Shown here in pieces: positions 13,733-17,021 of a stretch of DNA of 62,579 nt; the first letter of the stretch is position 1, and each line of letters starts with the position of its first letter. Position numbers and translations under genes: made by a program. The DNA comes from an uncultured Acholeplasmatales bacterium (GTDB lineage Bacteria; Bacillota_I; Bacilli_A; Acholeplasmatales; UBA5453): positions 1 through 62,579 of the forward strand of contig CAKMJY010000001.1 of NCBI GenBank assembly GCA_927433595.1, written 5' to 3'. The notes below the pieces were generated by a model. The model was not told the origin of the DNA. It did not search any database and saw only the letters and a program-made list of their open reading frames with translations.

Positions 13733-14062
13733 ATGGAACAGACAGTGCAAAGTTTAGTTTCAAAACGATTAGCCTACAGATTGGCTGACCATTTGCCAAA
13801 ACCGCTAAAGATTGCTTACTACATCATCTTATGGGCAACGGCGATATACGTTCTATATCGCTTCCTTAGATGGCTCTTAGAATCTATCCAAAAGGTAGGC
13901 GAGTTCATGTTCGAGAAACGGAACTACTGGACTACAGTGTGGGTAATATTCGTGATGTTTGTAGGCAGTGTCTTAGTAGCACAGTTTTGGTACGGATTAG
14001 ACCCAGTTGGTCACACGGTCCGATGGTTTGAAAATCTGATAAAAGGCTGGATTACTTTATGA
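13733..14062 (+). CDS. Holin-like membrane protein (2 predicted TM segments)
   Basis: Position after fibres; two hydrophobic, aromatic-rich stretches. Confidence 0.5.
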   Translation: MEQTVQSLVSKRLAYRLADHLPKPLKIAYYIILWATAIYVLYRFLRWLLESIQKVGEFMFEKRNYWTTVWVIFVMFVGSVLVAQFWYGLDPVGHTVRWFENLIKGWITL

Positions 14063-14844
14063 AGATTTTAAAAGGGTATTTATCATTATTCTCGGGTTCT
14101 ATTCTACCAATAGTAGCTTGGCTATTGGAATGGCTAGATAACGTAGAGCTTCTAAGGCTCCAAAAGACTTTCTATTTGCTATCAATAGTCTTAATCTGCA
14201 TAGGTATCATACAGGTGCTGTTTAGGAGAAGAGCAAAGAGCAAAAGAAGAAAGAGAATCATGGAGCAAATGGCTGGTACTCAACAGGCCAAAAAGATTGT
14301 TGATTTAGCAAAAAACCCTTCCAAGAAGGGCGAAGTAATAGTTGAGACATTTCACTTATTCCAAAAAGGAGGAAAAATCGTGAAAGCAAAATTCGCATCA
14401 CTCGGTATCGTGCAGATTCTATCTCTCGTTGCCACATTATTGTTATTGGGATTAAGTGCTGCATCAGCATTTTATCCAGAACTATCTATCGTCGCAGAAA
14501 ACATTGCATTGGTCATGGTCATGGCTGGTATCACTGCGACTCCTGGTATTATGTCGCATGGTAAAGATTTAGGTGAGCAGTTTAGATCTAGTATAGAAAG
14601 AATGAACGCCATCAAAGCAGCAAATGCAAAGATTAAAGTTGCCAAAAAAGAACTGGATAAGATTGATGCCGAATATGCTTGGCTCAAACCTTACATTCAA
14701 AGACATACTTTATATAACACGCCATTGACTGGCGAACAGGCATTAGAGCATGACAATCATCAGAGTCAGCGTCAAGTGTTTGTAGATTTGATTGAAGGAT
14801 ATAAACTGGAAATCAAGCAGCTTCAAGAGGTTCAAAATGATTAA
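14059..14844 (+). CDS. Membrane protein with C-terminal coiled coil, putative lysis protein
   Basis: About 4 hydrophobic segments, basic linker RRRAKSKRRKR, and an internal SD with in-frame GTG at 14380. Confidence 0.7.
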   Translation: MKILKGYLSLFSGSILPIVAWLLEWLDNVELLRLQKTFYLLSIVLICIGIIQVLFRRRAKSKRRKRIMEQMAGTQQAKKIVDLAKNPSKKGEVIVETFHLFQKGGKIVKAKFASLGIVQILSLVATLLLLGLSAASAFYPELSIVAENIALVMVMAGITATPGIMSHGKDLGEQFRSSIERMNAIKAANAKIKVAKKELDKIDAEYAWLKPYIQRHTLYNTPLTGEQALEHDNHQSQRQVFVDLIEGYKLEIKQLQEVQND

Positions 14845-15358
14845 GTCATACGGTAACATCAAATGTGAAGCAGATTTGAAAATGATTCAATCAAGGTTAG
14901 AAGCGAATCAACAAGCTGTAGGCGTATCTGATGGTGGGAATTTATTCACTCTGAATAAGAACTCGAGTATATTTCAAATAACTCGAGAAAAGGCTCAAGA
15001 ATTGCTTCAGGCCACGCATGAGGAGATGGATCTAATTATCTCTTCAAGAGGAAAATATGTATTCCCAGATCCTGTTGTTGAAGAACCTTCGATTGATGCA
15101 TTAAATATTCCATTCGAATCTACAGAAGTAGCACCTGATGTAATCGAACCTGTAGAAGTGAAGGAAGCAGATACATTGAACATCTCTAATGAAGAAGTTA
15201 TCGATGTCATAGAAGGTGAACCTGGCGTTAATCAGGATGATGAACCTGATGATGCTGAAGACTTTGTTCAAATCTCAAAAGAAGAATATGATGAACTTCT
15301 AGATAAATCTACATCATATGATGCAATTAAAGATTTGATTCTTAATGCAAAATATTAA
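14837..15358 (+). CDS. Hypothetical acidic phage protein
   Basis: ATG 14837 after GAGG, overlapping the upstream stop; D/E-rich C-terminal half. Confidence 0.7.
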   Translation: MIKSYGNIKCEADLKMIQSRLEANQQAVGVSDGGNLFTLNKNSSIFQITREKAQELLQATHEEMDLIISSRGKYVFPDPVVEEPSIDALNIPFESTEVAPDVIEPVEVKEADTLNISNEEVIDVIEGEPGVNQDDEPDDAEDFVQISKEEYDELLDKSTSYDAIKDLILNAKY

Positions 15359-15361
15359 TAT

Positions 15362-15393
15362 AAAAGCCATGGGAAAGGTCCATGGCTTTTTTT
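15362..15393. terminator. Bidirectional intrinsic terminator ending the late operon
   Basis: AAAAGCCATGG-gaaaggt-CCATGGCTTTT plus T-run, between convergent genes. Confidence 0.88.
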
Positions 15394-15394
15394 G

Positions 15395-15655
15395 TTAGTC
15401 CCAGTACTCGGGTTTAAATTCATTCACATCAAAATTTAATGCTTCAGCTATCTTCAATCGGGTTTTATCTGATATTCCCCTAACACCAGTTTCCCATTGG
15501 CCAACCGATTGCTTAGTAACTCCAATCATGTTGCTGATATCTTTTAGAGACCCTTTTAAGAACTCTCTATTCACTTTAATAATTAATGCATCAAAGGTTA
15601 GTTCAGGATATAACTCTTTATATGCTAACAATAAATGCTTCTTTACTTGATTCAT
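15395..15655 (-). CDS. XRE-family helix-turn-helix protein
   Basis: SLKDISNMIGVTKQSVGQWETGVRGI...KIAEAL; AGGAG SD lies inside the upstream gene. Confidence 0.88.
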   Translation of the reverse strand: MNQVKKHLLLAYKELYPELTFDALIIKVNREFLKGSLKDISNMIGVTKQSVGQWETGVRGISDKTRLKIAEALNFDVNEFKPEYWD

Positions 15656-16142
15656 CAAAGTTCAACTCCTTTTCAATAATAGATTTTCTCTCTTCGATGA
15701 GAGGGCGAAGATATCCAGGAACGTCAATCTTCAATTTTCTTTTTAACATTTTACTAATGAAGATCTCTGAGTATGCAATTGCATCAACTTCGATGGCTTG
15801 AGTAGCGTAATCAACCATGTTGTCTTCTGAAGGTTTTATATGATTATCAAACTCTTTCTTCCATAGAACTGGATTATCTGAAGGCTTTGGAGCAATGTCA
15901 CCAGTGATTACCTGGTGTTGGTACGCATGACGTGTTTCATGGGCTAAAAAGCCTAATACGGTTGGTGTGAGTTCTGTATAAATCGAATTAACAAGAATCA
16001 CATTGTCTTCTGGCATGAAAGCTGCAGCAATTACTTTACTATCAGAATTCAGAAGAAGAATCTCTGTAGGAAATTTGCCGAGCACCTTTGATGATTCAGT
16101 TTCTATTCTATTGAGCTGTTCTAAAAATGTCATTTTATGCAT
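15618..16142 (-). CDS. HExxH zinc metallopeptidase (ImmA/IrrE-like)
   Basis: LAHETRHAYQ and downstream Y..Q.IEVDA. Confidence 0.8.
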   Translation of the reverse strand: MHKMTFLEQLNRIETESSKVLGKFPTEILLLNSDSKVIAAAFMPEDNVILVNSIYTELTPTVLGFLAHETRHAYQHQVITGDIAPKPSDNPVLWKKEFDNHIKPSEDNMVDYATQAIEVDAIAYSEIFISKMLKRKLKIDVPGYLRPLIEERKSIIEKELNFDESSKEAFIVSI

Positions 16143-16320
16143 TTACGACTTCGACTACATAGTCTTGAACTGCACTCTTTACGTAGCTTTCTTTATCTTC
16201 ATCAGTTTGAACGTCATCATAGAAAATGATATCTGCATCGTTGATTGCTTCTATAAGTGTAGATCCTTCTCCAATTAGGTTTACTTTCTTACCTTGGATT
16301 GCTTTGTATAATTTAGTCAT
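16135..16320 (-). CDS. Small acidic hypothetical protein (61 aa)
   Basis: AAGGAGAG SD; overlaps the peptidase start; 12 D/E versus 6 K. Confidence 0.75.
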   Translation of the reverse strand: MTKLYKAIQGKKVNLIGEGSTLIEAINDADIIFYDDVQTDEDKESYVKSAVQDYVVEVVNA

Positions 16321-16349
16321 GTTATTCTCTCCTTGTGTGTGATGTCTGT

Positions 16350-16378
16350 TTGATTTATTAAATGAACTGCTATATAAT
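16350..16378 (+). promoter_or_regulatory. Sigma-A promoter of the antisense RNA
   Basis: TTGATT-17 bp-TATAAT. Confidence 0.7.
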
Positions 16379-16381
16379 AAA

Positions 16382-16450
16382 GGTAAGGTGGTTAAGACTT
16401 TTTAACTTTGGTCGGTTATGAGGTTTTAGTTACCTTTATTATTTTTGTTT
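16382..16450 (+). ncRNA. Putative cis-antisense hairpin sRNA
   Basis: Follows the promoter; long stem with several G-U pairs valid only on the plus strand, UUGGUC loop, U-rich tail. Confidence 0.55.
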
Positions 16451-16587
16451 GTTTGGTTTAATTCAACCATTGCAACTTCAACTTCTTCATCATCTTCAAG
16501 AACGATGAACACTTGAGTTACCATTATTAGTTGTTTGCCATTAACTTTTTTGCTTTCAACTTCGCCATGTACTGGGACTAGTTTCAT
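16426..16587 (-). CDS. Small hypothetical protein (53 aa)
   Basis: Strong SD AGAAAGGAGGT before ATG 16587; first gene after a consensus promoter. Confidence 0.75.
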   Translation of the reverse strand: MKLVPVHGEVESKKVNGKQLIMVTQVFIVLEDDEEVEVAMVELNQTNKNNKGN

Positions 16588-16636
16588 AATTTTTACCTCC
16601 TTTCTCATTTGTACTCCTTAACCACCCTACATATAT

Positions 16637-16667
16637 ATTATAGCATTATCGCTTTACGTTGTCAAGC
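16637..16667 (-). promoter_or_regulatory. Consensus sigma-A promoter with an overlapping palindromic operator
   Basis: TTGACA-17 bp-TATAAT with extended -10 TG; imperfect palindrome GCTTTAC-gtt-GTCAAGC (16651..16667) covers the -35. Confidence 0.85.
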
Positions 16668-16719
16668 ATTTAATGAAACTTTTTTTATTTTTGTGTATAA
16701 TATTATTAGGGGTGGTTAT

Positions 16720-16887
16720 ATGATGGATAATACCAAATGTAGAAAAGATACGGATTTAGAAGTTAGTAATAAGATAGATGAATCTCAAGAGGAAGATCCT
16801 GAAATGGATCTCATTAGATTCTTTGATGGTATTTTAGAAGTCATAAAGAAAGACGAAGTATTAAGCAAGTTACTTGATTTAGAGTAA
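16720..16887 (+). CDS. Small acidic hypothetical protein (55 aa)
   Basis: TATAAT at 16696 and an AGGGGTG SD-like sequence precede ATG ATG at 16720. Confidence 0.5.
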   Translation: MMDNTKCRKDTDLEVSNKIDESQEEDPEMDLIRFFDGILEVIKKDEVLSKLLDLE

Positions 16888-16970
16888 AAACAACTAGTTT
16901 AACATGAATGTCGATGTGATATATATGTATTTACTAGGATCTACGGTCGCCTGAATGTTCGGATGAACTC

Positions 16971-16984
16971 TACCAATGGCACCA
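16971..16984 (+). other. Putative attR core: tRNA 3' fragment (Leu- or Thr-like, ending TGGCACCA)
   Basis: TACCAATGGCACCA resembles an acceptor-stem 3' strand plus ACCA, has no upstream tRNA body, is followed by a terminator, and marks the phage/host boundary. Confidence 0.6.
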
Positions 16985-16995
16985 CTTGAAATGAT

Positions 16996-17021
16996 AACGG
17001 CTATTTATGAGCCGTTTTTTT
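16996..17021 (+). terminator. Intrinsic terminator after attR
   Basis: AACGGCT-atttatg-AGCCGTT plus T-run. Confidence 0.8.

Follow-up and report, generated by a model that had tools for sequence, protein, structure and literature searches.

The window, that is, the whole stretch of 62,579 nucleotides that was analyzed, is one contig of a 1.59-Mb, 86%-complete assembly of an Acholeplasmatales bacterium (G000), and a second genome of the same genus (G007) carries the same cassette. Acholeplasmatales have no cell wall. Head-like, tail and membrane-protein genes occupy approximately 1 to 15.4 kb of the window, and the cassette is positioned at the right end of this prophage, where the following features were delineated:

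15362..15390, no strand assigned: intrinsic terminator, U-rich on both sides, directly 3' of the HTH stop
15395..15658, minus strand: XRE HTH gene (HTH_3, E 5.6e-8); N-terminal extension invariant, recognition helix in two alleles
15618..16142, minus strand: zincin metallopeptidase gene (HExxH plus a downstream E) of an unnamed SprT/DUF3920-like family
16135..16320, minus strand: variable slot, here holding an acidic 61-aa ORF (acid61)
16350..16378, plus strand: P2, antisense promoter TTGATT-17-TATAAT
16383..16397, minus strand: 3' partner of a predicted 15-bp 5'-3' mRNA helix, inside the antisense target
16385..16450, plus strand: predicted antisense sRNA of ~65 nt, one hairpin with loop UUUGGUCG and a U-rich tail antisense to the last ORF53 codons
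16426..16587, minus strand: ORF53, a candidate antisense-silenced effector of 53 aa, SD AAAGGAGGT
16616..16630, minus strand: predicted mRNA 5' leader, pairing with 16383-16397
16637..16665, minus strand: P1, sigma-70 promoter TTGACA-17-TATAAT with extended -10 (TG)
16650..16668, no strand assigned: imperfect palindrome over the P1 -35, candidate HTH operator
16720..16887, plus strand: divergent 55-aa ORF adjoining attR, outside the conserved unit
16979..16984, plus strand: attR core GCACCA, where a tRNA gene has its 3' end; a terminator follows at 16996-17016

The gene layout proposed by an earlier sequence-only reading is upheld: a perfect promoter (12 of 12 positions, plus the TG) stands ahead of four genes, namely the 53-aa ORF behind P1, the acidic 61-aa ORF (12 D/E versus 6 K/R), a peptidase with the HExxH signature (H68, E69 and H72, with E118), and an XRE HTH gene whose ORF overlaps that of the peptidase by ~40 nt. 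The genes also co-occur elsewhere. Four further cassette loci were found (L022, L042, L045 and the short L043), all of which keep the overlapping peptidase and HTH genes, so that the overlap and the same terminator after it are present in 5/5 loci, and the three with upstream DNA (L022, L042 and L045) conserve P1, the leader, ORF53, the intergenic hairpin and P2. Compared across these loci, the layout is modular in its sequence, with an invariant P1/ORF53/P2/hairpin unit, a swappable small-gene slot, and then the zincin and XRE HTH genes. Orthologs of acid61 are 95% and, in L022, 67% identical, and L045 has an unrelated 113-aa gene in its place; such a swappable slot is typical of accessory cassettes. 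Synonymous changes equal or exceed non-synonymous ones in ORF53, the peptidase and the HTH against all three relatives compared, and the corresponding counts for acid61 are 3/3 and 18/21.

To assess the distribution of the cassette, genomes of the order and viral collections were searched. Among 301 genomes searched by DNA and pattern and 121 searched by RNA model and profile, G000 and G007 alone yielded the ORF53/sRNA unit; 37 other DNA matches, together with matches at E>0.01, were counted as chance from their short length and score and were mostly uninspected. IMG/VR returned no match for ORF53, the HTH, two DNA patterns, or the peptidase as a single protein, and one distant peptidase locus with an alignment query, and GenBank phages gave no match. 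No paper on the cassette or the peptidase family was found in the literature searched, a body of work that takes in few subscription journals. The cassette is real, conserved and lineage-restricted.

Promoter sites of the P1 grade number 20 in the whole 1.59-Mb genome, and TTGACA-17-TATAAT is retained in L022, L042 and L045. The palindrome that the sequence-only reading placed over the -35 is present, but in the window it has 6/9 pairs, which is chance level (at least 6/9 pairs occur at 321 of the 1013 TTGACA sites of the genome), whereas L022 and L045 have 8/9, a score reached by 7/1013 background TTGACA sites. The window HTH shares its recognition helix with the loci that have the 8/9 palindrome, yet the window palindrome stays at chance level. 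In L045 the palindrome occurs as a single copy, with none at the CI/Cro region, and it is not enriched in the genomes examined; a single-copy conserved palindrome fits a dedicated operator, as far as the sequence can indicate. The HTH protein is 86-87 aa long, its HTH_3 domain comprises residues 35-81 of 87, and only seven close homologs were found. In a second allele (L043:583-846; proteins P0176 and P0180-P0182) the recognition helix is swapped and the termini are the same, a pattern that suggests specificity switching; promoter DNA for this allele was not recovered from contigs. Contigs of one public run (X3) have the -10/leader stretch (window 16589-16648) in common but diverge in the -35 region and downstream, which hints that related leader units are joined to other genes.

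ORF53 is likely translated as 53 aa because the upstream ATG that would give a 60-aa form reads ACG in L045. Its homologs comprise 10 matches, all at least 79% identical, and it has a relative in Paracholeplasma manati (WP_277617865.1, 91% identical). Codons 48-53 have zero changes in three relatives with 5-15 codon differences elsewhere, and the motif KNNKGN is invariant across 12 proteins; such frozen positions are as expected if the codons also encode the putative sRNA tail. The predicted structure (pTM 0.38) has a long beta-hairpin over residues 2-31 (pLDDT ~90-97) and an acidic tail that is disordered, and the protein is non-hydrophobic, with a maximum 19-residue Kyte-Doolittle value of 0.9. 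No usable family, fold or Atlas match was obtained for ORF53 from Pfam, PHROG and fold searches, and ORF53, acid61 and the 113-aa gene had no PADLOC, PHROG, NCBIfam or PDB match, none of these resources being an Acr list. A resemblance of ORF53 to half an OB-fold or SSB fragment was rejected, as 244/999 scored shuffles were as high and the hhalign probability was 0.2%.

The internal antisense RNA named in the sequence-only reading is borne out as a prediction by a conserved P2, a hairpin and a U-rich tail. Both P2 hexamers are invariant in 4/4 loci, and DNA conservation of the unit ends exactly at the P2 -35. The sRNA hairpin has a predicted energy of -18.8 kcal/mol (z -5.3, 0/200 shuffles) and remains stable in relatives (z -4.6 in L022 and -4.4 in L045); the same stretches on the sense strand give z -1.0 and -1.5. 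The fold is confined to the antisense strand, since the stem relies on G-U pairs, and in L022, where several arm positions differ, the full stem still forms. YUNR U-turn loops are a mark of kissing antisense RNAs. The mRNA in turn is predicted to form a 15-bp helix between its 5' leader and the antisense target (-23 to -26 kcal/mol, mean pairing probability at least 0.98, 4/4 loci), and a perfect match of at least 10 nt arose in 3/300 shuffles. This helix does not directly cover the ORF53 SD, whose predicted unpairedness is 0.62-0.78 without the 3' site and 0.44-0.47 with it. The leader is almost identical to the 5' end of the sRNA, the two forming a 29-nt inverted repeat, and the first 15 nt of the mRNA can therefore pair with the sRNA target; in these folding models the sRNA would compete with the 5'-3' helix. 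Alternatively, a single promoter unit could have been duplicated, an event that would explain the identity of leader and sRNA and yield the helix without selection. The RNA predictions rest on four related loci that make up two pairs of close kin, a sample so small that double-sided covariation is absent.

RNA-library contigs from two libraries of two studies cover the L045-type ORF53 and sRNA unit, one of them extending 65 nt into the slot gene; this cover, seen in 2/2 RNA runs and 1/2 DNA runs picked by words of the region, is weak and unstranded and gives neither strand nor level. Both host genomes have RNase III family genes, and Rfam matched nothing in the vicinity of the sRNA. The antisense strand could in principle encode a 17-aa hydrophobic peptide, but this candidate was rejected, since an early stop lies in its frame in L022. 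The RNA layer is the most conserved and most mechanistically specific part of the cassette, and it was under-weighted by the sequence-only reading.

Most orthologs of the zincin use an ATG equal to 16133, and in a set of 28 homologs the conservation of H68, E69, H72 and E118 is at least 90%. The model is confident (pLDDT 90) and zincin-like, but no solved structure stands out: the best Foldseek E is 0.056, with IrrE/PprI ranked 2-4 at E 0.06-0.08, and the best VIA Z is 8.0, to aminopeptidases described as unrelated (rmsd 3.8, 128 aligned), against 6.2 for PprI (rmsd 3.9, 93 aligned). The family is large (4878 representatives, as clusters at 50% identity), occurs in 93/301 genomes of the order, and gives weak DUF3920, DUF6782 and SprT-like matches. 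Neither the query at E<=1 nor, among the matches listed, any of 53 homologs at E<=0.05 matched PF06114/M78; the nearest Atlas clusters are DUF3920/SprT-like, with M78 at 0.89. A predicted complex of the peptidase and HTH scored 0.00, which gives no answer either way.

Among 118 distinct genes of this family from 147 loci, an HTH gene lies downstream of 5 of the 114 with downstream DNA (four of these five being the cassette lineage), upstream of 5 of the 109 with upstream DNA, and within 600 bp on any side of only 10/118, as counted with a custom profile that may miss divergent HTHs and with an HTH-like upstream gene in L136/L140 left out. Family-wide peptidase-HTH linkage is absent by this count. 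Most Acholeplasmatales homologs are lone genes without a conserved neighbor, many of them (by eye, uncounted) beside restriction, cyclase or recombinase genes or prophage ends, and a close homolog (58%) sits among housekeeping genes in L023. Lone zincins lie near a cyclase-like gene in L026, where a membrane-protein gene is beside the latter, and in L027, where the zincin is interrupted by an insertion-sequence-like stretch. A host paralog (G000:C50:54-560, L021) has lost HExxH. Three loci (L034, L038 and L040) have a divergent XRE gene, the zincin, one or more small genes and a large serine recombinase; this ICE-like arrangement is distinct and may represent a genuine protease-repressor switch. 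In other bacteria (L046, L047, L049, L057, L194, L197, L202 and L204) the zincin lies amid nuclease-/immunity-like genes, followed by a conserved ~97-aa gene, and in P0142, P0159 and P0164, long helical proteins of secreted type, a family member forms the C-terminal domain.

The attR position given in the sequence-only reading has independent backing, and it is fixed because public-run contigs break at GCACCA (16979-16984), with the empty site behind the tRNA T-arm in 2/4 runs and an attP-type join in 1/4. An 11-bp arm left of the core (16957-16967) has an inverted partner in the attP-side sequence of run X4, as expected for a serine-integrase attP. In L045, a 535-aa serine recombinase and a CI/Cro region precede the cassette, the order expected for the attP form; attL, the left prophage arm and the prophage's own CI are absent from the window's assembly. 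The 55-aa ORF beside attR is present in L042 and not in L022 or L045, and is weakly similar to a 46-aa ORF right after Cro in L045 (1403-1543, minus strand; 26% over 31 aa, pairwise E 1e-4); both are candidate excision factors. The genes previously called lysis genes (13733-15358) had no Pfam or PHROG match above the cut-off; they are three conserved late genes, two membrane-type and one acidic, with no recognizable endolysin, and they possibly form the release module of a phage of a wall-less host. On the other strand, between the last late gene and the terminator (window 15360-15374), is a second variable slot or cargo hotspot, which is empty in the window and L043, holds a 78-aa gene and an aspartyl protease in L022 (7513-8273) and L042 (1409-2168), and holds three genes, one of them HicA-like, in L045 (6772-7846). 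Run X3 has an 877-nt insert at this position.

Taken together, these data make it quite probable that ORF53, as first gene, is under antisense control. The fuller reading that we favor, in which the operon is a growth-inhibitory ORF53 silenced by antisense RNA in the lysogen, much as in a type I toxin-antitoxin (TA) pair, and heading an HTH-autoregulated accessory operon, is tentative and falls a little short of an even chance, because ORF53 toxicity, repression of P1 by the HTH, and a zincin that is not the trigger are each things that we infer. The 5'-3' helix would stabilize the ORF53 message and partly damp its ribosome-binding site; the sRNA would pair with the 3' region and open the helix, and RNase III would cut the duplex, destroying the ORF53 message while the processed downstream RNA could still be translated. 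The XRE HTH would repress P1 at the -35 palindrome. Where the sRNA and HTH are absent or have decayed, on phage entry or after loss of an excised prophage, ORF53 would be made and could inhibit growth via a soluble target, stabilizing the prophage or aiding takeover, and the zincin may act on its own as an accessory effector, its substrate belonging to the host or to a foreign phage. The non-hydrophobic character of ORF53 counts against a type I toxin.

The layout also fits an early anti-defense operon of the acr-aca kind, in which P1 would fire at phage entry, ORF53, the slot gene and the zincin would inhibit defenses, and the HTH and sRNA would shut the operon off. The strong promoter, the terminal HTH, the 8/9 palindrome of L022 and L045, the exchangeable slot with its small acidic gene and the position directly after the integrase in the attP form (L045) all agree with this, as does the description of Aca proteins as autorepressors at promoter-overlapping inverted repeats (PMC13551039). 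The anti-CRISPR proposal of the sequence-only reading has the layout behind it; against it count the lack of any match for the small genes in the databases above (which hold no Acr list) and Cas1, found in 1/5 genomes and in neither lysogen (G000, 86% complete; G007, 99% complete). ORF53 is, moreover, invariant and not rapidly swapped, and we regard an acr-aca function as rather unlikely. The proposal that ORF53 is a recombination directionality factor held off by the sRNA draws on its place beside att, a small protein near attP and the 535-aa recombinase in L045, and the tight control that would suit an excision factor; with ORF53 91% identical between phages that have different att-side sequences, and the 55-aa ORF the better candidate in that it varies with the att region, this proposal is very improbable.

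Two further explanations center on the peptidase. It could cleave the cassette HTH or the phage CI as a secondary immunity switch, with the sRNA limiting protease levels in the lysogen as sar limits Ant in P22 immI, a locus that likewise has an antirepressor together with a small gene and an antisense RNA (PMC11016777). The constant overlap with the HTH gene (5/5 lineage loci), the Foldseek ranks of IrrE/PprI, the three distant homologs (L034, L038 and L040) that have an XRE gene in divergent orientation and a serine recombinase gene downstream and, indirectly, more distant candidate peptidase/HTH pairs (P0008/P0175 and P0011/P0174) would agree with such a switch. Yet PF06114/M78 matches are missing from the query and, among the matches listed, from its 53 homologs, PprI scores below unrelated aminopeptidases, and the HTH domain runs to residue 81/87, leaving no room for a C-terminal dimerization domain like that described for DdrO (PMC12828697). 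The L045 CI carries its own C-terminal domain, the sRNA overlaps the ribosome-binding site of neither the slot gene nor the peptidase, and the family is mostly unpaired with HTH genes; the protease-released switch of the ImmA/IrrE/CapP type that had been proposed is accordingly not sustained, and we judge it improbable. Alternatively, the peptidase and HTH may be a toxin-first type II TA pair apart from the RNA module. Gene overlap and order, an HTH N-terminal extension that is invariant even where the recognition helix is swapped, and the family's occurrence in secreted-type proteins and in nuclease-immunity-like clusters ahead of the ~97-aa gene are in keeping with this, but most Acholeplasmatales homologs are lone and the protein is therefore tolerated without a partner, and the 58% homolog lies among housekeeping genes, making a type II pair still less probable than a protease switch.

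Temperate tailed phages of wall-less Acholeplasmatales are barely studied, and the 91%-identical relative of ORF53 in Paracholeplasma manati makes the cassette testable. Were a non-membrane type I toxin confirmed, it would offer a new intracellular target and a possible counter-selection tool for these bacteria, and the zincin offers a way into a large unnamed family of proteases often encoded beside restriction and other defense genes. In the boldest version of our preferred reading, which we hold to be doubtful, ORF53 would represent a novel type I toxin or host-takeover factor of soluble beta-hairpin form, the first such factor in Mollicutes phages, doubly controlled by an antisense RNA and an Aca-like HTH, and co-transcribed with a zincin from a large unnamed family of mobile effector proteases acting in phage defense or counter-defense.

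Among known systems, the cassette resembles type I TA loci in pairing ORF53 with a predicted convergent cis-antisense RNA over its 3' end and in the predicted 5'-3' mRNA helix of 4/4 loci; an "upstream helix" at the 5' end is described as stabilizing the Fst mRNA (PMC7472228). A typical type I toxin is a small, hydrophobic protein of the membrane (PMC8167048, PMC7699646), a usual though not universal criterion from which ORF53 departs (maximum 19-residue value 0.9). Relative to par (Fst/RNA II, Enterococcus pAD1) as described (PMC7472228), the cassette has no shared bidirectional terminator and no DRa/DRb pair over the start codon, ORF53 has no hydrophobic Fst-like character, and the U-turn-like loop is in the antisense RNA. 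The cassette is only a candidate type I TA system, and it should not be filed as ImmA/ImmR or acr-aca. With acr-aca loci it shares a strong promoter, small genes, a terminal HTH and a candidate inverted-repeat operator at the promoter, 6/9 pairs in the window and 8/9 in L022 and L045 (PMC13551039), but Acr or Aca homology was not found in Pfam, PHROG, NCBIfam, PADLOC or PDB, and the words peptidase, protease and antisense are absent from the main text of the Aca survey (PMC13551039). ImmA/ImmR, IrrE/DdrO and CapP/CapH likewise place an HExxH zincin with a downstream Glu beside an XRE gene on a mobile element (PMC12828697). The cassette peptidase is by contrast not M78/COG2856, its HTH is without a C-terminal dimerization domain, and the pairing is limited to one phage lineage.

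In phage P22, the Arc fold is a ribbon-helix-helix and sar pairs with the ant translation start. The immI region (mnt-arc-sar-ant) is, like the cassette, a late-region module that begins with a small gene and has an antisense RNA inside it (PMC11016777), but ORF53 is modeled without helices, no Ant homolog is present, and the cassette sRNA, starting at ~16385 with the slot gene at 16320, does not overlap the downstream gene. In yonT/SR6 of Bacillus subtilis SPbeta, the small first gene of a polycistronic mRNA has a ~65-nt 3' overlap with its antisense RNA, no terminator follows it, and decay is by RNase III (PMC5848175). No sequence relationship was seen, the cassette has zincin and XRE HTH genes downstream, and SR6 is described as also covering the ribosome-binding site of the next gene, which the cassette sRNA does not (PMC5848175). 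The two nevertheless have in common a small first gene of a four-gene prophage transcript (58 aa there versus 53 aa for ORF53), an internal convergent promoter, an antisense 3' overlap of ~65 nt and the lack of a terminator after the first gene (PMC5848175). By analogy, the cassette would appear to work most like an antisense-gated operon of the SPbeta yonT/SR6 type with an aca-like terminal HTH.
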